From Escherichia phage vB_EcoM_01: a DNA stretch of 64,000 bases. Every line of letters starts with the position of its first letter. Position 1 is the first letter of the stretch. Location of the stretch: sequence record PP129558; one strand, written 5' to 3'. This document shows, one piece after another, positions 3,990-54,174 of the stretch. Under the pieces are notes generated by a model. The model was not told the DNA's origin and searched no databases. It was given only the letters and a program-made list of their open reading frames with translations. The position numbers were made by a program, and so were the translations under genes.

Positions 3990-5124
3990 TTAAAATTCTC
4001 CTCAATAAAAAGGGGCCGAAGCCCCTAGTTTCATCACATCTTGCAAGCTTCACAACCACCATCAGAATCTTCTTGTGCTAAAGAGTCTGCTGATTTTGTT
4101 CTACTATTAAGGTAATACAATGANNNNNNNNNNNNNNNNNNNNNNNNNNNNNNNNNNNNNNNNNNNNNNNNNNNNNNNNNNNNNNNNNNNNNNNNNNNNN
4201 NNNNNNNNNNNNNNNNNNNNNNNNNNNNNNNNNNNNNNNNNNNNNNNNNNNNNNNNNNNNNNNNNNNNNNNNNNNNNNNNNNNNNNNNNNNNNNNNNNNN
4301 NNNNNNNNNNNNNNNNNNNNNNNNNNNNNNNNNNNNNNNNNNNNNNNNNNNNNNNNNNNNNNNNNNNNNNNNNNNNNNNNNNNNNNNNNNNNNNNNNNNN
4401 NNNNNNNNNNNNNNNNNNNNNNNNNNNNNNNNNNNNNNNNNNNNNNNNNNNNNNNNNNNNNNNNNNNNNNNNNNNNNNNNNNNNNNNNNNNNNNNNNNNN
4501 NNNNNNNNNNNNNNNNNNNNNNNNNNNNNNNNNNNNNNNNNNNNNNNNNNNNNNNNNNNNNNNNNNNNNNNNNNNNNNNNNNNNNNNNNNNNNNNNNNNN
4601 NNNNNNNNNNNNNNNNNNNNNNNNNNNNNNNNNNNNNNNNNNNNNNNNNNNNNNNNNNNNNNNNNNNNNNNNNNNNNNNNNNNNNNNNNNNNNNNNNNNN
4701 NNNNNNNNNNNNNNNNNNNNNNNNNNNNNNNNNNNNNNNNNNNNNNNNNNNNNNNNNNNNNNNNNNNNNNNNNNNNNNNNNNNNNNNNNNNNNNNNNNNN
4801 NNNNNNNNNNNNNNNNNNNNNNNNNNNNNNNNNNNNNNNNNNNNNNNNNNNNNNNNNNNNNNNNNNNNNNNNNNNNNNNNNNNNNNNNNNNNNNNNNNNN
4901 NNNNNNNNNNNNNNNNNNNNNNNNNNNNNNNNNNNNNNNNNNNNNNNNNNNNNNNNNNNNNNNNNNNNNNNNNNNATTAATTGCTGCCATTTAAAATTCT
5001 CCTCAATAAAAAGGGGCCGAAGCCCCTAGTTTCATCACATCTTGCAAGCTTCACAACCACCATCAGAATCTTCTTGTGCTAAAGAGTCTGCTGATTTTGT
5101 TCTACTATTAAGGTAATACAATGA
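3973..5124. other. assembly gap: N run 4125-4975 flanked by identical ~150-bp sequence (3973-4124 = 4973-5124)
   Basis: Flanks are identical and each contains the nrdA stop, a terminator hairpin and the nrdB start; uncollapsed contig-end overlap. ORFs 4034..4990 and 4120..4980 are artefacts. Confidence 0.9.
5005..5027 (-). terminator. intrinsic terminator-like hairpin between nrdA and nrdB (duplicated at 4005-4027)
   Basis: Minus-strand RNA reads AGGGGCTTCGGCCCCT followed by TTTTTAT; GC stem with TTCG loop. Confidence 0.5.
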
Positions 5125-21351: not shown

Positions 21352-22003
21352 TTCTTTTTGCTCCTCTTTTTAGATTTCTCATACAAACCTAACACAGCCG
21401 CTTCTTTTGCACAAGTAGGAACTGAAGTCATTCCTCTTCTTTTTGCTTCTGGCAGTTGCAAAGTCCATATTCNGTCTCTTATNNNNNNNNNNNNNNNNNN
21501 NNNNNNNNNNNNNNNNNNNNNNNNNNNNNNNNNNNNNNNNNNNNNNNNNNNNNNNNNNNNNNNNNNNNNNNNNNNNNNNNNNNNNNNNNNNNNNNNNNNN
21601 NNNNNNNNNNNNNNNNNNNNNNNNNNNNNNNNNNNNNNNNNNNNNNNNNNNNNNNNNNNNNNNNNNNNNNNNNNNNNNNNNNNNNNNNNNNNNNNNNNNN
21701 NNNNNNNNNNNNNNNNNNNNNNNNNNNNNNNNNNNNNNNNNNNNNNNNNNNNNNNNNNNNNNNNNNNNNNNNNNNNNNNNNNNNNNNNNNNNNNNNNNNN
21801 NNNNNNNNNNNNNNNNNNNNNNNNNNNNNNNNNNNNNNNNNNNNAGAGACAGCTTTTACACACTTCAGGAAAGTCTTGATCATTTCTTTTTGCTCCTCTT
21901 TTTAGATTTCTCATACAAACCTAACACAGCCGCTTCTTTTGCACAAGTAGGAACTGAAGTCATTCCTCTTCTTTTTGCTTCTGGCAGTTGCAAAGTCCAT
22001 ATT
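21331..22003. other. assembly gap: N run 21481-21844 flanked by ~140-bp duplicated sequence
   Basis: Flanks near 21331-21473 and 21861-22003 are identical, with ambiguous bases beside the Ns; ORFs made of X codons are artefacts. Confidence 0.9.
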
Positions 22004-22730: not shown

Positions 22731-23037
22731 CTTTAACCACCTCCAATTGCCTTTCGAGTTTGACTCTGTTTGAGAACTGATAATGACACAACTTACATTG
22801 CATGTCAACAATCTGATCGTGATTTAACCCTACAATTTTAACTTCCTTTGCACCATCCCACTCCAAATACTCAAAGCCATCTAAATGATTACTCTTGTCC
22901 AACAGGAATGCTATCTGCTGCCATTCAATCTGAATATCATTTAAATGATATGCTGCACAGAAGATATCCTCATAGTAAAAGACGATCATTGTCATTGCTT
23001 CGTCTAGTACAACTACCTCTTGTCTTGTAAATCTCAT
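22714..23037 (-). CDS. hypothetical protein; first gene of the leftward transcription unit
   Basis: 107 aa; AGGAGG RBS; borders the divergent control region. Confidence 0.35.
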   Translation of the reverse strand: MRFTRQEVVVLDEAMTMIVFYYEDIFCAAYHLNDIQIEWQQIAFLLDKSNHLDGFEYLEWDGAKEVKIVGLNHDQIVDMQCKLCHYQFSNRVKLERQLEVVKDDSTN

Positions 23038-23039
23038 TC

Positions 23040-23517
23040 TAGCCTCCTAAACGCGTCTCTGACACACTTTTTATATATAAGATGATAAATCACCTTACCT
23101 AGTAAGTAAACTTGCTCTACGAGCCTCTTATGAAGCTTATGTTATAGGCTATACTATTACTACCTGTTTAAGCAAGGTTTTGCACACAGAAATAATTTTT
23201 TAATAAAACTCTTGACTTTTGTGTTCGAAGTATGCTACCCTAGAAATCTATTAACGAGCGCAGCGAGTTAAGGTTTTAGGTTGTTGATGTAGTACTCTGT
23301 ACTCAAGTACTGTACTCCGTACTAGATTAATAATTATTAAATATTAATAATAAATAATTATTAGATCTAACAAACAGGTACAGTGTATCAGAACTGGTAC
23401 GTACAGATCAACTTCTATCAATTAAAAATAAAATAATAAATTATTATAAATAATACTTGATCTATAGATCAGTATGAAGTACAGTACGTAACATCTTAAC
23501 AAGAATGGAGGTGTGCA
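23040..23517. promoter_or_regulatory. divergent intergenic control region; candidate replication origin or promoter hub
   Basis: 478 bp without ORFs between the leftward and rightward gene blocks; five closely spaced GTACT(C) direct repeats, two fully A/T tracts of ~40 bp, GTAC-containing motifs and a 12-bp palindrome GATCTATAGATC. Confidence 0.4.
23291..23325. repeat. iteron-like array of five GTACT(C) direct repeats
   Basis: AGTACTCTGTACTCAAGTACTGTACTCCGTACTAG read directly from the sequence. Confidence 0.6.
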
Positions 23518-23703
23518 ATGATTAGTGAGAATCCGTGCAAATGGCATCATGTGCCTATTAAAGATTGTATGTCTTGTAATCCACGTTCTATTTATAACAT
23601 TGCATCTTATGATGATGACAATGTGTTAGACGATGATGAAGGCTGGGAGGATTTAGATTGGACTGGTTATGAAACCAAAAGGGATAAAATTATTCCTAGT
23701 TGA
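23518..23703 (+). CDS. hypothetical protein
   Basis: 61 aa; GGAGG RBS; first rightward ORF. Confidence 0.3.
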   Translation: MISENPCKWHHVPIKDCMSCNPRSIYNIASYDDDNVLDDDEGWEDLDWTGYETKRDKIIPS

Positions 23704-23740
23704 CTTAAGATATCCTTCGTGCTAAACTAGAAGTGAGGAG

Positions 23741-23992
23741 ATGCCGATCACTCCCCATTTGGGGTTCGAAGGATATATGCAAAATAGCTTTTATTTTAGG
23801 TGCCGTGCTTGTAATAGGCATTTGACAAACCACTCCAGACGTGATAAAAATGGAGTCATCAAGGAATCAGACCTCTGTTCTATTTGCACAGGTTTGGCTT
23901 TTGATGATAGTCCCGAAAGGGTTTATCAGCATCAATATATAACAGACGTTCTCGTGTCAAACTTGGTAGAGGACGAACAACTAACAGATTAG
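23741..23992 (+). CDS. hypothetical Cys-rich protein
   Basis: 83 aa; CRACN...CSIC pairs. Confidence 0.3.
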   Translation: MPITPHLGFEGYMQNSFYFRCRACNRHLTNHSRRDKNGVIKESDLCSICTGLAFDDSPERVYQHQYITDVLVSNLVEDEQLTD

Positions 23993-24000
23993 GAGGAACA

Positions 24001-24249
24001 ATGTCTCTATTAGAAAAACACGTGTTTGAAGATGGTAACGGCAATGCAGTTTTTCTTTTCCATCCAGAAAAATACACATCTGAAAATAATGGTACAACTT
24101 CTATTGTAATCACTAAAGATGTTAAAGTTATTGATTTCTTGGCTCTGATGCGAGAGATGGATCTTGAAATTAATACTTTTAACGCAGAAGCTTTGGTTGT
24201 TGCTCTTCTGGAAAAGAAAGATAGTGAAGAAGTAGCAGAATATGCTTAA
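24001..24249 (+). CDS. hypothetical protein
   Basis: 82 aa; GGAGGAACA RBS. Confidence 0.3.
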   Translation: MSLLEKHVFEDGNGNAVFLFHPEKYTSENNGTTSIVITKDVKVIDFLALMREMDLEINTFNAEALVVALLEKKDSEEVAEYA

Positions 24250-24256
24250 ATAACTA

Positions 24257-24285
24257 TTGACAAACGTATCCTTCATATGTTAGGA
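24257..24285 (+). promoter_or_regulatory. candidate promoter (TTGACA-N17-TTAGGA) ahead of the tRNA array
   Basis: Consensus -35 hexamer; weak -10; shares the AACTATTGACAA context with the promoter at 24844. Confidence 0.35.
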
Positions 24286-24299
24286 TACGTTCATCAAGT

Positions 24300-24490
24300 G
24301 TGGTAACAGGGTCGTTGATTTTTGTTAAGAGGGGCTTGCACTGCGGTAGTGTTAGAGACTACTTCTTCAGAGGTTAGCTACCAAAGAGGAAAAGGAATAG
24401 TCTCGGCTCAAGAACTTTTACGCTGAAAGTTGGGCTTGGTCTTAGAGAATGTAGCGATTCTCTACAATCGTCAGCGTCTCTGTTACCACA
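24300..24490 (+). ncRNA. candidate structured RNA (~190 nt) closed by a 10-bp long-range stem
   Basis: GTGGTAACAG at 24300-24309 pairs with CTGTTACCAC at 24481-24490; internal hairpins such as TAGAGAAT/ATTCTCTA; no ORF or tRNA fold; sits between a promoter and the first tRNA. Confidence 0.3.
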
Positions 24491-24495
24491 TTTAT

Positions 24496-24570
24496 GGCCC
24501 TGTAGCTCAATGGGAGAGCTGTCGGCTCATAACCGATAGGTAGCTGGATCGAAACCAGCCAGGGCCACCA
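24496..24570 (+). tRNA. tRNA with CAT anticodon (Met or Ile2)
   Basis: Manual fold: acceptor GGCCCTG/CAGGGCC, D stem GCTC/GAGC, anticodon loop CTCATAA, T arm GCTGG-ATCGAAA-CCAGC, encoded CCA. Confidence 0.7.
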
Positions 24571-24572
24571 AC

Positions 24573-24647
24573 GTCTTTATGGTGTAATGGATAGCACAGG
24601 AGTCTTCTAAACTCTTAGTCAAGGTTCGATTCCTTGTAAAGACACCA
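24573..24647 (+). tRNA. tRNA-Arg (anticodon TCT)
   Basis: Acceptor GTCTTTA/TAAAGAC, anticodon loop CTTCTAA, T arm CAAGG-TTCGATT-CCTTG, encoded CCA. Confidence 0.75.
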
Positions 24648-24650
24648 GAA

Positions 24651-24831
24651 CATTTTAACATGAATTAGCTCAAGTGATTTGAACCCACTACTGATCATGG
24701 TGGCAGAGAATGAGGCAAGTATGTCAGACATTATAAACAAAGGCCACGGTTATATTAGAAGACATAAATGCTCGAAGAGCACCGTTCGTGGAGAGCGGGG
24801 GTTGGTGGAGTCACCATTCATGGTAAAATGT
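24651..24831 (+). ncRNA. candidate structured RNA (~180 nt) closed by a 17-bp long-range stem
   Basis: AACATTTTAACATGAAT (24651-24667) pairs with ATTCATGGTAAAATGTT (24815-24831) with one mismatch; between two tRNAs; the 63-aa ORF inside is probably not coding. Confidence 0.3.
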
Positions 24832-24843
24832 TTTAAAAAACTA

Positions 24844-24872
24844 TTGACAACTAACATTATTTTATGTTAGAT
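24844..24872 (+). promoter_or_regulatory. candidate promoter (TTGACA-N17-TTAGAT) ahead of tRNA-Ser
   Basis: Consensus -35 hexamer; the tRNA 5-prime end at 24882 is at a plausible distance from the -10. Confidence 0.4.
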
Positions 24873-24881
24873 TATAAGTAT

Positions 24882-24972
24882 GGAAGGGCAAATCGACGTG
24901 GCGACGAAAACGGTCTTGAAAACCGCCGAGCTTGAAAGAGCCTTGGGAGTTCGACTCTCCCTCCTTCCGCCA
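24882..24972 (+). tRNA. tRNA-Ser (anticodon TGA), type II
   Basis: Acceptor GGAAGGG/TCCTTCC, anticodon loop CTTGAAA, long variable arm, T arm GGGAG-TTCGACT-CTCCC, encoded CCA. Confidence 0.65.
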
Positions 24973-24977
24973 GATTA

Positions 24978-25063
24978 GGTAGATTGGTGAAATGGTAGCC
25001 ACGACAGTTTGCTAAACTGTAGTCGGAAACGGCGTGTAGGTTCGAGTCCTACATCTACCGCCA
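24978..25063 (+). tRNA. tRNA-Ser (anticodon GCT), type II
   Basis: Acceptor GGTAGAT/ATCTACC, anticodon stem ACAGT/ACTGT with loop TTGCTAA, long variable arm, T arm GTAGG-TTCGAGT-CCTAC, CCA. Confidence 0.65.
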
Positions 25064-25193
25064 AGTTCTTTTTAATGTAGCTTACTTTAGCAGAGTAAAT
25101 CTTCGGCAAGTGGCGGTAACCACTTTACCGATACCTCATAGTTAGTGGTGAGAACACTGGCTATTTTAAAAAGAATTTAAATATTAGTATTTA

Positions 25194-25281
25194 GGTGAGT
25201 TAATTCCGTAGGGGTAGCGGGGCAGACTGTAAATCTGTTATCATTGCGATTCGGGTGGTTCGACTCCATCACTCACCACCA
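25194..25281 (+). tRNA. tRNA-Tyr (anticodon GTA), type II
   Basis: Acceptor GGTGAGT/ACTCACC, anticodon loop CTGTAAA, long variable arm, T loop TTCGACT, CCA. Confidence 0.6.
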
Positions 25282-25287
25282 AATTAA

Positions 25288-25373
25288 GATGAGTTGGCTG
25301 AATGGTTTAAGCGGCGGACTGTTAATCCGTGTTCGAAAGAACAATATAGGTTCGAATCCTATACTCATCGCCA
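25288..25373 (+). tRNA. atypical type II tRNA whose anticodon loop parses as GTT
   Basis: Perfect acceptor GATGAGT/ACTCATC, T arm ATAGG-TTCGAAT-CCTAT, CCA; best anticodon arm GCGGA-CTGTTAA-TCCGT gives GTT, yet there is a 15-nt variable arm with its own GTTC-GAAA-GAAC hairpin. Confidence 0.4.
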
Positions 25374-25380
25374 GAATTAT

Positions 25381-25457
25381 GGACTTGTAGAGTTAAGGTA
25401 AACCCCCAGTCGCCAATAGGCTTCTGGAATTGCAGGTATCGAATCCTGCCGAGTCCC
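25381..25457 (+). ncRNA. tRNA-like element with aberrant anticodon arm (possible tRNA pseudogene)
   Basis: Acceptor GGACTTG/CGAGTCC and T arm GCAGG...CCTGC (8-nt loop) are present, but the anticodon region forms a bulged hairpin with an AATA tetraloop; no CCA. Confidence 0.3.
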
Positions 25458-25463
25458 AGCATT

Positions 25464-25538
25464 GCTCCTATAGTATAATGGCTATTACAACGGTTTTGTA
25501 ATCCGTGGATCTCTGTTCGATTCAGTGTGGGAGCACCA
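25464..25538 (+). tRNA. tRNA-Thr (anticodon TGT)
   Basis: Acceptor GCTCCTA/TGGGAGC, anticodon loop TTTGTAA, T loop TTCGATT, CCA. Confidence 0.6.
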
Positions 25539-25811
25539 ACACAACATTAAGAGCACTGTGATTGATCGTCGTATCCTGTGCACAAGGTCTGCTCGAAAGA
25601 CAGTGTTCTTAGTATTGTGTTGATCACAAAAAGAGTCACCCGAAACTTGACCGGAGTAGGGTTGGATGGGGCAAAATGAGAAGCGGCTCTCCCATCGACA
25701 GCAACGAAGAATAATATTTGACTTTGGTTTTGTATTATTTTAAGTTAGCTTACCGAACGTAGGGCTAGTCACCCAACGGGATACTCGTCACTGTCCCAAT
25801 CAATAAAAGTC

Positions 25812-25841
25812 TTGACAACAAATAGTAAAATGTAGTATAGT
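25812..25841 (+). promoter_or_regulatory. sigma70-like promoter (TTGACA-N18-TATAGT) ahead of tRNA-Gly
   Basis: Consensus -35 and near-consensus -10; the tRNA 5-prime end is 12 nt downstream. Confidence 0.55.
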
Positions 25842-25852
25842 AAATATATAGG

Positions 25853-25926
25853 GCGTTCTTGGTGTAGCGGTAGCATTCCGTCCTTCCAAGTCGGCGGCAC
25901 GAGTTCGATCCTCGTAGAACGCTCCA
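25853..25926 (+). tRNA. tRNA-Gly (anticodon TCC)
   Basis: Acceptor GCGTTCT/AGAACGC, anticodon loop CTTCCAA, T arm ACGAG-TTCGATC-CTCGT, CCA. Confidence 0.6.
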
Positions 25927-26024
25927 AATTATTTAATAAAGGGTTGCCAGAAAACTTTCTCTTTTACTCATGGTTTTCTCCTTCTCTCACACTTCTTCTG
26001 GTTGCCCTTCATTAAATGATTTAT

Positions 26025-26100
26025 TGGTTTGTAGTGTAGTCCGGTAGCACACGACACTTTGACTGTCGTAGGTTTGGTTCAAATCCAGACAGACCAGCCA
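26025..26100 (+). tRNA. tRNA-Gln (anticodon TTG)
   Basis: Acceptor TGGTTTG/CAGACCA, anticodon stem CGACA/TGTCG with loop CTTTGAC, T loop TTCAAAT, CCA. Confidence 0.7.
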
Positions 26101-26270
26101 TATAACGGAATTTAGCTCAGTTTGGTAGAGCGTACGCTTTGGGAGCGTAGGGTCGCAGGTTCGAATCCTGCAATNCNGACAGACCAGCCATATAACGGAA
26201 TTTAGCTCAGTTTGGTAGAGCGTACGCTTTGGGAGCGTAGGGTCGCAGGTTCGAATCCTGCAATTCCGAC
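26091..26270. repeat. 90-bp tandem duplication with ambiguous bases at the junction (26175, 26177), duplicating tRNA-Pro
   Basis: 26091-26180 equals 26181-26270 apart from ncn; copy 1 of tRNA-Pro (26106-26180) is 3-prime degraded by the ambiguous bases; probably a consensus artefact. Confidence 0.7.
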
Positions 26271-26272
26271 CA
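26196..26272 (+). tRNA. tRNA-Pro (anticodon TGG)
   Basis: Acceptor CGGAATT/AATTCCG, anticodon stem TACGC/GCGTA with loop TTTGGGA, T arm GCAGG-TTCGAAT-CCTGC, CCA. Confidence 0.7.
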
Positions 26273-26278
26273 ATTAAA

Positions 26279-26352
26279 TGTTTCGTAGTTCAATGGTAGA
26301 ACCCACGACTGATAATCGTGAGACACAAGTTCGATTCTTGTCGAAACAACCA
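26279..26352 (+). tRNA. tRNA-Ile (anticodon GAT)
   Basis: Acceptor TGTTTCG/CGAAACA, anticodon stem CACGA/TCGTG with loop CTGATAA, T arm ACAAG-TTCGATT-CTTGT, CCA. Confidence 0.75.
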
Positions 26353-26354
26353 GT

Positions 26355-26424
26355 TTCCCGTTAGACTTACAGGATAAGAGATCCACAATTTATTGTGACG
26401 CTGGTTCGAATCCAGCACGGGATA
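26355..26424 (+). ncRNA. tRNA-like element with tetraloop in place of an anticodon loop
   Basis: Perfect T arm GCTGG-TTCGAAT-CCAGC and a 6/7 acceptor pairing, but the central arm is CACAA-TTTA-TTGTG (4-nt loop); CC without A at the 3-prime end. Confidence 0.3.
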
Positions 26425-26430
26425 CCTAAT

Positions 26431-26509
26431 AGCGGGATAGAGGAGTCTGGTCGTCCTCGCCAGTTTCATATGCTGGAGATCATTGGTTCAAATCCAATTC
26501 CCGCCTCCA
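26431..26509 (+). tRNA. second tRNA with CAT anticodon (Met or Ile2); A1-C72 mismatch
   Basis: Acceptor AGCGGGA/TCCCGCC (position 1-72 unpaired), D stem GAGG/CCTC, anticodon stem CCAGT/GCTGG with loop TTCATAT, T arm ATTGG-TTCAAAT-CCAAT, CCA; lacks the three G-C pairs of an initiator anticodon stem. Confidence 0.6.
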
Positions 26510-26624
26510 AATATCGCTTGCCAGCGGTATCTTTGAAGACCTTGCCTGGTTCCTTCTAAGATGGAGGGGTGCGACTCCTTAACGCACAATTATAATAAAT
26601 CATTTCAAATTAACAGTATTTATT

Positions 26625-26648
26625 AGCCTCCTTATTGGAGGCTTTTTG
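26625..26648 (+). terminator. intrinsic terminator ending the tRNA transcription unit
   Basis: AGCCTCC-TTATT-GGAGGCT hairpin followed by TTTTT. Confidence 0.65.
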
Positions 26649-26666
26649 CTATCTATTGAATAAAAC

Positions 26667-26695
26667 TTGACTTATTATTTTTTATATGTTAAGAT
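26667..26695 (+). promoter_or_regulatory. candidate promoter (TTGACT-N17-TAAGAT)
   Basis: Near-consensus -35; TAAGAT -10-like element; about 20 nt upstream of the 26717 start. Confidence 0.4.
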
Positions 26696-26716
26696 AAAGT
26701 TTAGGAGGATTTTATT

Positions 26717-27013
26717 ATGCCTAAACTAAAACGTGGTCGTGGAAGACCAACAGCCGAAATGCAACAGATTTACGCAATGGATGCGGCGCAAGCAAGTGTA
26801 AAAGAATTATTTGCAGAGCATTATTTAGAAGCTATGCGGTATATTGTTGAACTTGTTAATGATAAGGATGCAGCAAAACCTCTCCGCTTCCAAGCAGCTA
26901 AAGCTATTAAAGAGCAAGTAGAAGAATGGTTAGAAGAACATTATGAAGCTATGGAAGAAGAAACCCCTGCCGTGCAGAATACAGATGACGTTCCTAAAAA
27001 GATCGTAATCTAA
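26717..27013 (+). CDS. hypothetical DNA-binding protein (AT-hook-like KRGRGRP)
   Basis: 98 aa; TAGGAGG RBS; GRGRP motif near the N-terminus; could be a small terminase candidate but unsupported. Confidence 0.35.
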   Translation: MPKLKRGRGRPTAEMQQIYAMDAAQASVKELFAEHYLEAMRYIVELVNDKDAAKPLRFQAAKAIKEQVEEWLEEHYEAMEEETPAVQNTDDVPKKIVI

Positions 27014-27062
27014 TCCCTCTCCTCTCTTGGGGCTTTGCCCCTCCTCCTTGTTATTTTTAACA

Positions 27063-27097
27063 CCCCTCTCCGAAAGGTTAGGGGCTTTTTTATTTTT
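27063..27097 (+). terminator. intrinsic terminator
   Basis: CCCCTCTCC-GAAA-GGTTAGGGG hairpin followed by CTTTTTTATTTTT; a second smaller hairpin GGGGC-TTT-GCCCC lies at 27029-27041. Confidence 0.6.
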
Positions 27098-27102
27098 AAT
27101 GC

Positions 27103-27132
27103 TTGCAATTGTATATCATTTTATGATAAGAT
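27103..27132 (+). promoter_or_regulatory. candidate promoter (TTGCAA-N18-TAAGAT)
   Basis: -35-like hexamer and the same TAAGAT element as at 26690. Confidence 0.35.
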
Positions 27133-27153
27133 CAGATATGAGGAGGATAAAAT

Positions 27154-27327
27154 ATGCGCAATTTTGTAGTTAAAAATGATTTTAACCGTTCTTCTTATCA
27201 TAAAGATAAAAAGAATGATTACACACGGGTTTGGAACTTGGAGGAAGAACTTTATGATGACAGAGAAGACTTGGGAAGAGATCCTAGCGGAGGCTCAACC
27301 AATGGAAGTGAAGAAGATAGTTAACAA
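27154..27327 (+). CDS. hypothetical small protein (57 aa); alternative to the ORF-track 27176..27391
   Basis: ATG at 27154 is preceded by GAGGAGG; the ORF-track alternative in another frame has no obvious RBS. Confidence 0.25.
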
Positions 27328-51336: not shown

Positions 51337-54174
51337 ATGTCAACTACAATTACTAATTTACCCGAAACATCAAAAGTTAATGATTCTGATTACCTGGTTT
51401 TAGACCAACCTGATAAGACTGTTAAAAGCACAGTTTCCAACTTTCTTACTGACACTGGGGTGGTTTTAGCCACCCAGTTGAAAGNNNNANNNGGGNCTGA
51501 GTTAATAGGACACAGAAACGCTACGGTTGGTGCCACTCTGGATTCAATTGCAGTCCGCTCAGATCAATTTTCTACTATTCAGGAATGGGCATCATACCCG
51601 GCAAAGAATAAAATTTTAGCGGAGGGTACTTATACTCTTGACTCAACTCNTNNNNGTGTTGAATGTGAATCACTAACCACTGAGGGTGTAGTTANNNNNN
51701 NNNNNNNNNNNNNNNNNNNNNNNNNNNNNNNNNNNNNNNNNNNNNNNNNNNNNNNNNNNNNNNNNNNNNNNNNNNNNNNNNNNNNNNNNNNNNNNNNNNN
51801 NNNNNNNNNNNNNNNNNNNNNNNNNNNNNNNNNNNNNNNNNNNNNNNNNNNNNNNNNNNNNNNNNNNNNNNNNNNNNNNNNNNNNNNNNNNNNNNNNNNN
51901 NNNNNNNNNNNNNNNNNNNNNNNNNNNNNNNNNNNNNNNNNNNNNNNNNNNNNNNNNNNNNNNNNNNNNNNNNNNNNNNNNNNNNNNNNNNNNNNNNNNN
52001 NNNNNNNNNNNNNNNNNNNNNNNNNNNNNNNNNNNNNNNNNNNNNNNNNNNNNNNNNNNNNNNNNNNNNNNNNNNNNNNNNNNNNNNNNNNNNNNNNNNN
52101 NNNNNNNNNNNNNNNNNNNNNNNNNNNNNNNNNNNNNNNNNNNNNNNNNNNNNNNNNNNNNNNNNNNNNNNNNNNNNNNNNNNNNNNNNNNNNNNNNNNN
52201 NNNNNNNNNNNNNNNNNNNNNNNNNNNNNNNNNNNNNNNNNNNNNNNNNNNNNNNNNNNNNNNNNNNNNNNNNNNNNNNNNNNNNNNNNNNNNNNNNNNN
52301 NNNNNNNNNNNNNNNNNNNNNNNNNNNNNNNNNNNNNNNNNNNNNNNNNNNNNNNNNNNNNNNNNNNNNNNNNNNNNNNNNNNNNNNNNNNNNNNNNNNN
52401 NNNNNNNNNNNNNNNNNNNNNNNNNNNNNNNNNNNNNNNNNNNNNNNNNNNNNNNNNNNNNNNNNNNNNNNNNNNNNNNNNNNNNNNNNNNNNNNNNNNN
52501 NNNNNNNNNNNNNNNNNNNNNNNNNNNNNNNNNNNNNNNNNNNNNNNNNNNNNNNNNNNNNNNNNNNNNNNNNNNNNNNNNNNNNNNNNNNNNNNNNNNN
52601 NNNNNNNNNNNNNNNNNNNNNNNNNNNNNNNNNNNNNNNNNNNNNNNNNNNNNNNNNNNNNNNNNNNNNNNNNNNNNNNNNNNNNNNNNNNNNNNNNNNN
52701 NNNNNNNNNNNNNNNNNNNNNNNNNNNNNNNNNNNNNNNNNNNNNNNNNNNNNNNNNNNNNNNNNNNNNNNNNNNNNNNNNNNNNNNNNNNNNNNNNNNN
52801 NNNNNNNNNNNNNNNNNNNNNNNNNNNNNNNNNNNNNNNNNNNNNNNNNNNNNNNNNNNNNNNNNNNNNNNNNNNNNNNNNNNNNNNNNNNNNNNNNNNN
52901 NNNNNNNNNNNNNNNNNNNNNNNNNNNNNNNNNNNNNNNNNNNNNNNNNNNNNNNNNNNNNNNNNNNNNNNNNNNNNNNNNNNNNNNNNNNNNNNNNNNN
53001 NNNNNNNNNNNNNNNNNNNNNNNNNNNNNNNNNNNNNNNNNNNNNNNNNNNNNNNNNNNNNNNNNNNNNNNNNNNNNNNNNNNNNNNNNNNNNNNNNNNN
53101 NNNNNNNNNNNNNNNNNNNNNNNNNNNNNNNNNNNNNNNNNNNNNNNNNNNNNNNNNNNNNNNNNNNNNNNNNNNNNNNNNNNNNNNNNNNNNNNNNNNN
53201 NNNNNNNNNNNNNNNNNNNNNNNNNNNNNNNNNNNNNNNNNNNNNNNNNNNNNNNNNNNNNNNNNNNNNNNNNNNNNNNNNNNNNNNNNNNNNNNNNNNN
53301 NNNNNNNNNNNNNNNNNNNNNNNNNNNNNNNNNNNNNNNNNNNNNNNNNNNNNNNNNNNNNNNNNNNNNNNNNNNNNNNNNNNNNNNNNNNNNNNNNNNN
53401 NNNNNNNNNNNNNNNNNNNNNNNNNNNNNNNNNNNNNNNNNNNNNNNNNNNNNNNNNNNNNNNNNNNNNNNNNNNNNNNNNNNNNNNNNNNNNNNNNNNN
53501 NNNNNNNNNNNNNNNNNNNNNNNNNNNNNNNNNNNNNNNNNNNNNNNNNNNNNNNNNNNNNNNNNNNNNNNNNNNNNNNNNNNNNNNNNNNNNNNNNNNN
53601 NNNNNNNNNNNNNNNNNNNNNNNNNNNNNNNNNNNNNNNNNNNNNNNNNNNNNNNNNNNNNNNNNNNNNNNNNNNNNNNNNNNNNNNNNNNNNNNNNNNN
53701 NNNNNNNNNNNNNNNNNNNNNNNNNNNNNNNNNNNNNNNNNNNNNNNNNNNNNNNNNNNNNNNNNNNNNNNNNNNNNNNNNNNNNNNNNNNNNNNNNNNN
53801 NNNNNNNNNNNNNNNNNNNNNNNNNNNNNNNNNNNNNNNNNNNNNNNNNNNNNNNNNNNNNNNNNNNNNNNNNNNNNNNNNNNNNNNNNNNNNNNNNNNN
53901 NNNNNNNNNNNNNNNNNNNNNNNNNNNNNNNNNNNNNNNNNNNNNNNNNNNNNNNNNNNNNNNNNNNNNNNNNNNNNNNNNNNNNNNNNNNNNNNNNNNN
54001 NNGGTTATCTATGATAAGGAGACGCAAAGGGCGTATTCCCTACCTGCTGATATTGCCCCAGGTACTACTGCCATTAGTCTTAGTGCTGCTGTACTTGTGC
54101 ATTCGGCGGGTTCTGTAGACCTTGGGGAATTAGCTGTATCTTGTGATTTAAAAAGTAATGAGAACACACTATGA
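51337..54174 (+). CDS. tail fibre protein interrupted by an assembly gap
   Basis: N-terminus MSTTITNLPETSKVNDSDYLVLD is fibre-like; the interior is an N run, so length and frame continuity are unknown. Confidence 0.35.
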   Translation: MSTTITNLPETSKVNDSDYLVLDQPDKTVKSTVSNFLTDTGVVLATQLKXXXGXELIGHRNATVGATLDSIAVRSDQFSTIQEWASYPAKNKILAEGTYTLDSTXXXVECESLTTEGVVXXXXXXXXXXXXXXXXXXXXXXXXXXXXXXXXXXXXXXXXXXXXXXXXXXXXXXXXXXXXXXXXXXXXXXXXXXXXXXXXXXXXXXXXXXXXXXXXXXXXXXXXXXXXXXXXXXXXXXXXXXXXXXXXXXXXXXXXXXXXXXXXXXXXXXXXXXXXXXXXXXXXXXXXXXXXXXXXXXXXXXXXXXXXXXXXXXXXXXXXXXXXXXXXXXXXXXXXXXXXXXXXXXXXXXXXXXXXXXXXXXXXXXXXXXXXXXXXXXXXXXXXXXXXXXXXXXXXXXXXXXXXXXXXXXXXXXXXXXXXXXXXXXXXXXXXXXXXXXXXXXXXXXXXXXXXXXXXXXXXXXXXXXXXXXXXXXXXXXXXXXXXXXXXXXXXXXXXXXXXXXXXXXXXXXXXXXXXXXXXXXXXXXXXXXXXXXXXXXXXXXXXXXXXXXXXXXXXXXXXXXXXXXXXXXXXXXXXXXXXXXXXXXXXXXXXXXXXXXXXXXXXXXXXXXXXXXXXXXXXXXXXXXXXXXXXXXXXXXXXXXXXXXXXXXXXXXXXXXXXXXXXXXXXXXXXXXXXXXXXXXXXXXXXXXXXXXXXXXXXXXXXXXXXXXXXXXXXXXXXXXXXXXXXXXXXXXXXXXXXXXXXXXXXXXXXXXXXXXXXXXXXXXXXXXXXXXXXXXXXXXXXXXXXXXXXXXXXXXXXXXXXXXXXXXXXXXXXXXXXXXXXXXXXXXXXXXXXXXXXXXXXXXXXXXXXXXXXXXXXXXXXXXXXXXXXXXXXXXXXXXXXXXXXXXVIYDKETQRAYSLPADIAPGTTAISLSAAVLVHSAGSVDLGELAVSCDLKSNENTL
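51485..54002. other. assembly gap: scattered ambiguous bases (51485-51655) and N run 51695-54002
   Basis: Runs of n in the sequence; the ORFs across it on both strands are artefacts. Confidence 0.95.

Follow-up and report, generated by a model that had tools for sequence, protein, structure and literature searches.

Introduction

For about fifty years it has been known that the transfer RNA (tRNA) clusters of phages T4 and T5 also encode small stable RNAs. The function of RNAs of this type is still listed as unknown (PMC3014915, PMC9697503); the roles of rnaC and rnaD of T4 have remained unknown for decades (PMC3014915), and their expression has been confirmed by northern blot (PMC9697503). 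The T5 reference record (RefSeq NC_005859) carries, in its tRNA region, eight misc_RNA features described as 'stable RNA with unknown functions' or as 'tRNA-like'; the T5 RNAs compared in this work are RNAI, RNAIII, RNA1, RNA2, RNA2H, RNAIV, RNA3 and RNAX. The large phage-associated RNAs GOLLD and ROOL, which often lie beside tRNAs, form RNA-only oligomers (PMC12286853). Here we analyse the tRNA array in a stretch of 64,000 nucleotides (nt) from Escherichia phage vB_EcoM_01 (sequence record PP129558), referred to below as the window. A preliminary description of this stretch had proposed that four gaps between the tRNA genes are candidates for small stable RNAs. Judged from the sequence, five or more non-coding RNA modules of the T4/T5 kind, folded and conserved, lie in the gaps of the array; they are here named seg1 to seg5.

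Results

Conserved folded segments between the tRNA genes

The inverted repeats that had been reported at the ends of two of the gaps were all found, seg1 having a perfect Watson-Crick core of 11 base pairs (bp) and seg2 arms of 17 nt, and closed helices were also found in two further spacers that had been called hairpin-rich (25064-25193 and 25539-25852). The latter had been treated as one spacer; it is structured, but it splits into seg4a, seg4b and a promoter-like site, P3, which accounts for the promoter-like element suspected there (Table 1). Significance of folding was assessed by comparing the minimum free energy with that of dinucleotide shuffles (z-scores in Table 1). A fifth closed spacer, seg5, lies just beyond the range described earlier. 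Comparison with relatives showed that the closing stems are kept and that compensatory changes are present, and this conservation spans Phapecoctavirus, the phiWec179 group, Klebsiella phage 05F01, Seunavirus, Justusliebigvirus, rV5-like and T5-like phages. Together with the T4/T5 precedent, the conservation of the stems supports the proposal that these are small stable RNAs such as occur in phage tRNA clusters, an interpretation that holds as far as sequence analysis reaches.

Several properties of the segments point to the RNA, read from the + strand, as the object of selection. The + strand fold of each segment is the more stable one, the - strand being weaker by 3-25 kcal/mol, and the orientation of the modules is always that of the tRNAs. 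Pairs of the G-U type are much commoner than A-C pairs (40:1 in seg2 and 26:4 in seg3), and selection therefore acts on + strand RNA and not on DNA. Moreover, loops and joining strands are invariant over about 30% overall divergence, so that the constraint exceeds the need of a passive spacer. Each segment is present in one copy in the window.

None of the segments appears to encode a protein or to belong to a known RNA family. As had been stated earlier for two of them, there is no credible open reading frame (ORF): those over the segments do not exceed 63 amino acids (aa; a TTG-initiated ORF at 24679-24870, the others being of 25-37 aa) and are not retained in homologues, and no conserved reading frame was found among the homologues compared. 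The longest stop-free frame shifts in frame and length (18-71 aa) across the seg2 homologues, and the coding sequences (CDS) annotated over seg4a homologues have 48 aa in common before the frame breaks, and lie on the opposite strand. Substitutions are pairwise-compensatory and show no codon pattern. A search of the 4227 Rfam models, at the gathering threshold and at E<=10, returned only tRNAs and chance matches in the region, and no family matched the segments even at E<=10. Neither ARAGORN nor the Rfam tRNA model (RF00005), even at E<=10, placed a tRNA in the four segments originally described; for transfer-messenger RNA (tmRNA) there was no ARAGORN call and no Rfam match in 23000-27200. The earlier statement that no tRNA fold is present thus stands with respect to these tools but not for the 5' half of seg2, which looks derived from tRNA-Ile. 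Alignments of seg1, seg3, seg4a, seg4b and seg5 with tRNAs did not rise above the null. Among 70-97 matching GenBank records there was no RNA annotation on any of the four segments, the records leaving these positions empty or placing a 'hypothetical protein' there.

Table 1. Structured segments, tRNA-like element and putative transcription signals in the tRNA array of vB_EcoM_01
Feature	Position	Strand	Description	Score or basis
seg1	24296-24493	+	~198-nt structured RNA; ~26-bp terminal helix around multi-hairpin core	z -5.7
seg2	24647-24834	+	~188-nt structured RNA, probably tRNA-Ile(GAU)-derived; directly 3' of tRNA-Arg(UCU)	z -3.2
seg3	25063-25193	+	structured leader directly 5' of tRNA-Tyr (25194-25278)	z -3.45
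seg4a	25537-25622	+	23-bp helix (one mismatch) capped by small three-helix core	z -2.6 (seg4)
seg4b	25623-25805	+	conserved structured region in tRNA-Thr to tRNA-Gly spacer	z -2.6 (seg4)
seg5	25927-26024	+	closed spacer between tRNA-Gly and tRNA-Gln; ~24-bp closing helix	z -5.2
x1	25374-25463	+	tRNA-like element 3' of tRNA-Asn; T5 RNA3 homologue	
P1	24257-24286	+	promoter-like site, TTGACA-18-TAGGAT, TG-extended	sequence match
P2	24844-24873	+	promoter-like site, TTGACA-18-TAGATT; heads second transcription unit	sequence match
P3	25812-25841	+	promoter-like site, TTGACA-18-TATAGT; kept in relatives; heads third unit, tRNA-Gly onward	11/12 matches
Terminator	26625-26643		intrinsic-terminator-like site	

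Seg1

The arms that close seg1 (24296-24330 and 24459-24493, 35 nt each) are 74% complementary and, with G-U pairs, form a helix of 16 bp, a bulge and 6 bp (+4). Its fold was equalled by none of 200 shuffles, and the + strand fold, at -74.6 kcal/mol, is 24 kcal/mol more stable than that of the - strand (-50.1 kcal/mol). Compensatory change was seen in 10 of the 70 predicted pairs, all of them inside internal hairpins, and the closing helix is near-invariant among homologues. Seg1 was seen only in Phapecoctavirus and in a lineage at 80% identity; of 70 phage records, none annotates it as RNA. The 3' end lies 2 nt 5' of tRNA-Met (24496), so that cleavage there by ribonuclease (RNase) P would set the 3' end of seg1.

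Seg2 and tRNA-Ile

In seg2, the 17-nt arms (24649-24665 and 24816-24832) are 94% complementary. Besides the resulting closing helix of 16 bp, seg2 has two hairpins that resemble a D-arm and an anticodon arm, the latter with the invariant loop CUGAUCA, as well as a long hairpin of variable sequence, one whose loop reads G(U/C)GGA and an invariant one, GGUGGAGUCACC. Homologues are found in the phiWec179 group (~82% identity), in Klebsiella phage 05F01 (72%) and in Seunavirus (~70%; PVP-SE1, GAP31, SSE-121, 4MG and Csp-D17). An RNAalifold consensus of 8 sequences contains 51 pairs, 21 of which show compensatory change, and 97% of cells are paired. As a control for covariation the 3' partners were slid and double-changed pairs counted; the 21 observed compare with 3-6 in the slid controls, and none of 500 shuffles attained the observed value on any of five measures. 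A covariance model of seg2 run over 25 loci, including those of T4, T5, phi92 and rV5-like phages, found members only in Phapecoctavirus, the phiWec179 group, 05F01 and Seunavirus. Motif scans of IMG/VR and of metagenomes yielded 4 contigs each, near the known lineages, and did not raise the diversity.

The 5' part of seg2 aligns with the tRNA-Ile of the window (26279-26352) over the D-arm and the anticodon arm (TAGCTCAAGTGATTTGAACCCACTACTGATCATGGTG in seg2 vs TAGTTCAATGGTAGAACCCACGACTGATAATCGTG in the tRNA). The local score of 42 was reached by none of 2000 shuffles and is the best among 212 phage tRNAs. Furthermore, the aligned hairpin is the very helix supported by covariation, with a 5-bp stem and a 7-nt loop that holds U33 and G34-A35-U36. 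The loop differs from that of tRNA-Ile (CUGAUAA) by a C instead of an A at position 37, in all homologues. Elsewhere seg2 has been rebuilt: it has the 16-bp terminal helix and no CCA end, a weakened D-stem, about 75 nt inserted at the position of the variable loop, and a T-arm cut down to GGUG-GAGU-CACC. Seg2 thus keeps a D-like arm and the anticodon arm of tRNA-Ile(GAU) but differs from it in C37, the remodelled T-arm and the large insertion, and is recognised neither by ARAGORN nor by the Rfam tRNA model. We conclude that seg2 probably descends from the phage's own tRNA-Ile(GAU).

The A37C change creates the palindrome UGAUCA and a mimic of the AUC codon. In Escherichia coli, the N6-threonylcarbamoyladenosine (t6A) at position 37 is needed for decoding and for recognition by isoleucyl-tRNA synthetase, and the change therefore removes the t6A site from seg2. 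With C37, the remodelled T-arm and the large insertion, seg2 would mimic the anticodon stem-loop of tRNA-Ile without being able to decode. Such features would suit a role as ligand or decoy of some factor recognising this anticodon loop. In SSE-121, a gene for an HNH endonuclease lies directly 3' of the seg2 homologue (locus L006, 516-1010), and PVP-SE1 has about 490 unannotated bases in the corresponding place (locus L004, 3684-4171). It is possible that this endonuclease drives the mobility of the cassette.

Seg3 and the tRNA-Tyr cassette

The closing helix of seg3 (arms 25063-25081 and 25160-25178; 19 nt, 84% complementary) encloses three hairpins, and the sequences CUUACUUUAGCAGAGUAA and UUACCGAUAC are invariant. 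Covariation gives modest support, with 91% paired and 4 double-changed pairs of 37 vs 0-2 in controls; these figures come from a smaller alignment (A2), since adding IMG/VR sequences and phi1_175008, whose 5' parts differ, worsened it. The rV5-like Vequintavirus JES2013 (locus L015, 3001-3213) carries, between unrelated flanks, a block 99.5% identical to 213 bp of the window (25060-25272) that span seg3 and the greater part of tRNA-Tyr. Such identity within unrelated flanks indicates a recent horizontal transfer of the tRNA-Tyr cassette between subfamilies. The T5-like phage HildyBeyeler carries a seg3 homologue (82%) directly 5' of its tRNA-Tyr (81%). Seg3 lies between tRNA-Ser(GCU) and tRNA-Lys in phi92, with tRNA-Tyr following, and between tRNA-Ser(GCU) and tRNA-Tyr in 05F01.

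Seg4a and a widespread hairpin module

The 23-nt arms of seg4a (25537-25559 and 25600-25622) are 87% complementary; 96.5% of its cells are paired, and 7 double-changed pairs were counted vs 0-3 in controls. Its 7-nt loop holds the palindrome GUGCAC, of which positions 2 and 5 covary among cargos of the seg4a type (U-A, G-C and C-G, giving GUGCAC, GGGCCC and GCGCGC); as exceptions, the palindrome is broken in one variant and another has an inserted base. A self-complementary 6-nt loop cannot pair with itself in cis, and the covariation suggests loop-loop dimerisation of RNAs of this type. Over all segments, a palindromic hexamer occurs in 2 of 15 minimum-free-energy loops (P ~0.075), which is no clear enrichment, and hence the kissing-loop idea rests mainly on the covariation in seg4a.

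The core of seg4a (GAUUGAUCGUCGU...GUCUGCUCG) is found again in 17 IMG/VR contigs and in the siphophages SCNJ1-C (a Klebsiella phage), PJ16 (Nonanavirus) and Bas79. No tRNA occurs within about 1.5 kb on either side of the homologues in PJ16 and Bas79, which argues for a function independent of tRNA processing. Seg4a is a member of a wider class of hairpin modules whose helix arms are conserved across phages (..AACAGGTAAGAGCA.. / ..GTGCTCTTTCCGTTGTGG..). Membership was judged by arms related to ..ACAACAGGTAAGAGCAYTG / CAGTGCTCTTTCCGTTGTGG.. around a cargo of 25-86 nt; the arms of seg4a, CAACACAACATTAAGAGCACTGT / ACAGTGTTCTTAGTATTGTGTTG, align to those of the module, and its cargo is of the commonest type. 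The cargo is hypervariable, with at least 116 variants in at least 176 elements from phage and IMG/VR sequences, and at about 15% of loci two or three modules stand in tandem, the copies being 100-180 nt apart. This module of conserved arms and variable cargo is no described family and is spread over hundreds of phages and prophages. Conserved-arm modules of the form AAGAGCAYTG...CAGTGCTCTT were also noted in IMG/VR contigs (loci L048-L206; L022, 1500-1733; L023, 1493-1719), some cargos hold T-arm-like GGTTCGA motifs, and only about 15-25% of the modules stand in a tmRNA-like context.

This context concerns SCNJ1-C, PJ16 and Bas79, where the hairpin homologous to seg4a (73-82%) lies about 80 nt 3' of a tmRNA-type tag frame. 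The frame of SCNJ1-C, AUAAAU GCA AAC GAA GAU CGU UUC CUG AUG GCG GCG UAA, encodes ANEDRFLMAA, and its region gives sub-threshold Rfam tmRNA matches only. We considered whether seg4 could itself be a degenerate tmRNA and rejected this, as it has neither a tag frame nor a tRNA-like domain and resembles those RNAs in the hairpin only; nor does any part of the window show similarity to their tag region. A reading of the seg4a core as a hammerhead was dropped on inspection by eye, the CUGANGA...GAAA arrangement and the three-stem topology being absent.

As a separate observation, enterobacterial phages may encode an unannotated tmRNA-like RNA, candidates for which were seen in SCNJ1-C (locus L021, 1316-1700) and at loci L022, L023, L026, L027 and L028. 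Tag frames include ANEDRFLMAA, ANEEMYLAVA, ANDDVVLMAA and ANDEQFLAVA, and the 3' end reads CCGG-(UUCGAUU or AGAUCAGCA)-CCGG-CCACCAC. In parts, a query of 406 nt has matches in 695 phage records, among them Ackermannviridae and Felix O1-like and N4-like phages. ARAGORN called no tmRNA in the 176 elements, and Rfam matches were sub-threshold only; the candidate 5' acceptor strand overlaps a predicted promoter spacer, and there is no evident G3-U70 pair.

Seg4b, seg5 and tRNA-like elements

Seg4b contains two invariant sequences, CCGAACGUAG and GAUAYYCGUCACUGU, and a terminal hairpin, GGGAUA...UGUCCC; in an alignment that included 05F01, phi1_175008 and Citrobacter phage Tr1, 12 of its 26 predicted pairs show compensatory change. 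The interior of seg5 is an unstructured C/U-rich loop of about 45 nt (CUUUCUCUUUUACUCAUGGUUUUCUCCUUCUCUCACACUUCUUC), and the conservation of seg5 amounts to 99% for the phiWec179 group and to 73% for phi92. Against T5 RNA3, a 'putative tRNA-like RNA', x1 gives a local score of 53, which none of 2000 shuffles reached (mean 17, standard deviation (sd) 3.4), and both occupy the same place relative to tRNA-Asn. X1 lacks a D-arm and has a T-loop-like sequence, UAUCGAAU. A further tRNA-like element, x2 (26353-26430), has a canonical T-arm and acceptor stem, but the loop on its anticodon stem is of 4 nt only (CACAA-UUUA-UUGUG), and none of the tools recognised it as a tRNA. Some relatives annotate pseudo-tRNAs in the array.

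Phage, tRNA array and transcription units

The window belongs to a Phapecoctavirus: over 24250-26600 its identity to the Escherichia phages AV126, ukendt and KKP 3954 is 98-99%. These are members of that genus (subfamily Stephanstirmvirinae), which comprises phAPEC8-like myophages of about 150 kb. From 24496 to 26509, the + strand holds 11 tRNAs according to ARAGORN. Two more matches come from Rfam, one a tRNA at 25194-25278 that relatives annotate as tRNA-Tyr, the other tRNA-like and sub-threshold, at 24882-24968. The latter, missed by ARAGORN and scored by Rfam as a sub-threshold tRNA-Sec, is probably a type II tRNA-Ser, with the anticodon loop CUUGAAA and anticodon UGA (by eye); its best alignment is with tRNA-Ser(GGA) of PVP-SE1 (score 75), and the annotation of PsgM04F has a tRNA-Ser.

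The three promoter-like sites share the form TTGACA-18-TAnnnT. From P1 we infer a start at about 24293-24295, immediately 5' of the closing helix of seg1. With these sites and the terminator-like site, the array reads as three + strand transcription units: P1-seg1-Met-Arg-seg2; P2-Ser-like-Ser-seg3-Tyr-Asn-x1-Thr-seg4a-seg4b; and P3-Gly-seg5-Gln-Pro-Ile-x2-Met-terminator.

A block of about 90 bp is duplicated in 26085-26272, with N at 26175 and 26177, resulting in two tRNA-Pro(TGG) calls; because related phages hold a single tRNA-Pro there, the duplication is probably an assembly artefact. Long runs of N occupy 4124-4975, 21483-21844 and 51695-54002 of the window. Between divergent gene blocks, the strongly A/T-rich intergenic stretch 23280-23500 contains many short GTAC-containing repeats (GTACTC, GTACTG, GTACAG) and long A/T palindromes, and may serve in regulation or as an origin of replication.

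Discussion

Our analysis leads us to propose, with a probability of roughly 55%, that tRNA-processing nucleases excise the modules from tRNA precursors, that the pairing of their ends keeps them stable, and that they work in trans as RNAs. According to this model, the modules would be co-transcribed with the phage tRNAs from the three sigma-70-type promoters P1, P2 and P3, and a long helix would pair the 5' and 3' ends of each. Maturation of the tRNAs would then free the modules: RNase P, cutting at the 5' end of the tRNA that follows, would define where seg1 and seg3 end on the 3' side, the 5' ends of seg2, seg3 and seg4a would result from 3' processing of the tRNA before them, and the helices of at least 20 bp in seg1 and seg4a are plausible sites for RNase III. 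Paired termini would shield these RNAs of about 85-200 nt from exonucleases, leading to accumulation like that of T4 RNAC and RNAD or T5 RNAI and RNAIII, and the freed RNAs would act in trans. The analysis establishes location, strand, conservation, covariation and the lack of reading frames and of known RNA families; transcription, processing, stability and any function in trans are predictions.

Alternatively, the segments could be cis-acting processing or stability elements only, which present the neighbouring tRNA ends in a suitable geometry to RNase P, E, III or Z, or shield the primary transcript, and are degraded once cleavage has occurred. We consider this the main rival, if a somewhat unlikely one, although it agrees with the fact that all closing helices start or stop within a few nt of a tRNA end, that seg3 and tRNA-Tyr move as one cassette among unrelated phages and are adjacent in T5-like phages, that T5 too has a closed hairpin as the leader of its tRNA-Tyr, though its sequence is unrelated, and that the long helices of seg1 and seg4a are typical of RNase III stalks. 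A stalk, however, needs the helix only, yet the interior loops and junctions are invariant at long distance; seg4a-type modules also exist with no tRNA in the ~1.5 kb to either side, and comparable T4 RNAs accumulate (PMC9697503). That the segments are functionless, as decaying tRNA pseudogenes or scars of recombination left by the traffic of homing endonucleases, might be suspected from the likeness of seg2 to tRNA-Ile, from the degenerate tRNA-like x1 and x2 in the array, and from the HNH gene beside the SSE-121 homologue of seg2, such genes being present in the tRNA regions of T4 and T5 too. But tRNA similarity is confined to seg2, and 91-97% of predicted pairs are kept in seg2, seg3 and seg4a across lineages of ~70% identity, with invariant loops; neutral decay would erase these pairs, and covariation largely refutes this improbable reading.

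Just as improbable, in our judgement, is that the inverted repeats are features of the DNA, such as ends of miniature mobile elements, cruciforms or protein-binding palindromes. The mobility of the modules between unrelated phages, the cassette-like appearance of conserved arms around hypervariable cargo in the seg4a type, and loops that are also palindromes in DNA (GTGCAC, GGGCCC, GCGCGC) would fit it; the tolerance of G-U but not A-C pairs is strand-specific and expected for RNA only, and the weaker - strand folds, the single copy of each segment and the constant orientation are equally at odds with it. Miniature inverted-repeat elements are multicopy and show no strand bias, neither of which holds for the segments. 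Small proteins, for which the short ORFs and the hypothetical CDS of several records could be cited, are more improbable still, given the variation of frame and length among seg2 homologues, the want of a codon pattern, and the broken, opposite-strand CDS over seg4a homologues. Theta ribozymes, resembling that of hepatitis delta virus, have reportedly been found beside phage tRNAs, and the segments, which are compact and tRNA-adjacent and have conserved unpaired nucleotides, might likewise be self-cleaving ribozymes that help to cut the tRNA precursors. We hold this to be very hard to credit, as none of the ribozyme families in Rfam 15 matches, even at E<=10 with permissive filters, and the seg4a core is by eye not a hammerhead.

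Several points weigh against excision and action in trans as proposed here. Independent lineages are few, namely 3 for seg1 and 3 for seg2. Set against the null for the best of 212 tRNAs (mean 32, sd 3.6), the score of 42 between seg2 and tRNA-Ile lies only ~2.7 sd higher. BLAST of the spacers against the T4 and T5 tRNA regions and the seg2 covariance model revealed no homology of seg1-4 to the T4/T5 RNAs. Nothing specific to these RNAs, whether a description or a transcriptome, emerged from searches of the literature, and no transcriptome paper was found for the phage group. To our knowledge, a mechanism is known for no RNA of this kind. Finally, seg3 always travels with tRNA-Tyr, and for this reason a purely cis role as a leader of that tRNA is a serious alternative for seg3, and equally possible.

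One may further speculate, from the covarying self-complementary loop of seg4a and from the UGAUCA palindrome and AUC mimic of seg2, that the modules belong to a horizontally mobile pool of phage accessory RNAs acting by loop-loop pairing, either as homodimers or by capturing tRNA anticodon loops, and serving as decoys or sensors where phages and host anticodon nucleases contend for tRNAs. We regard this as an unlikely extension of the model.

The window adds at least five RNA families of the T4/T5 stable-RNA kind, which are in no described RNA family. Several of them, unlike the T4/T5 RNAs so far, come with alignments, covariation-supported structures and invariant nucleotides; the origin of one can be traced to tRNA-Ile, another goes with a mobile cassette that includes tRNA-Tyr, and a third is a widespread module. 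Features such as the closing helices, the palindromic loops and the loop with C37 offer targets for mutation in phages that grow on E. coli K-12, and an old question thereby becomes experimentally approachable. Annotation pipelines, for their part, leave such regions empty or place spurious 'hypothetical proteins' in them.

Among known systems, long-range helices flank the RNA excised from a polycistronic transcript in the RNase III stalks of rRNA operons and of T7 early transcripts. Seg1 (16 + 6 (+4) bp) and seg4a (23 bp) have helices of the ~20 bp or more that characterise such stalks, whereas those of seg2 and seg3 are shorter, A/U-rich and mismatched, and the interiors are small and unrelated to rRNA. 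GOLLD and ROOL are likewise phage-borne and located beside tRNAs, and the self-complementary loops of seg4a and seg2 could allow self-association; GOLLD and ROOL are, however, 3-8 times larger, no Rfam match to them was found here, and oligomerisation of the seg RNAs is hypothetical. With the phage tmRNA-like RNAs, seg4a shares the hairpin module alone.

The closest counterparts are the T4 and T5 RNAs, with which the segments share a location on the tRNA strand within tRNA units, the lack of a conserved frame and a compact, end-paired fold. T4 RNAC (species 1) and RNAD (species 2) lie directly 3' of tRNA-Arg, as seg2 does; they differ in that there is no sequence or model similarity, that RNAC has a canonical T-arm, and that the minimum-free-energy fold of RNAD lacks a terminal closing helix. 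Seg1, seg2, seg4a and seg4b have no sequence similarity to T5 RNAs, T5 itself has no seg3, and the tRNA-like T5 RNAs retain canonical T-arms, which seg2 does not. On the other hand, the T5 RNAs, of 73-172 nt (RNAX, 719 nt), are also non-coding and situated between tRNA genes, on the same strand and behind sigma-70-type promoters, and 7 of 9 T5 spacer sequences that were folded close by a helix between their 5' and 3' ends, as the window segments do. T5 RNA1 and RNA2 are tRNA-like with large insertions, as is seg2; x1 is homologous to T5 RNA3, and T5-like phages such as HildyBeyeler carry a homologue of seg3.

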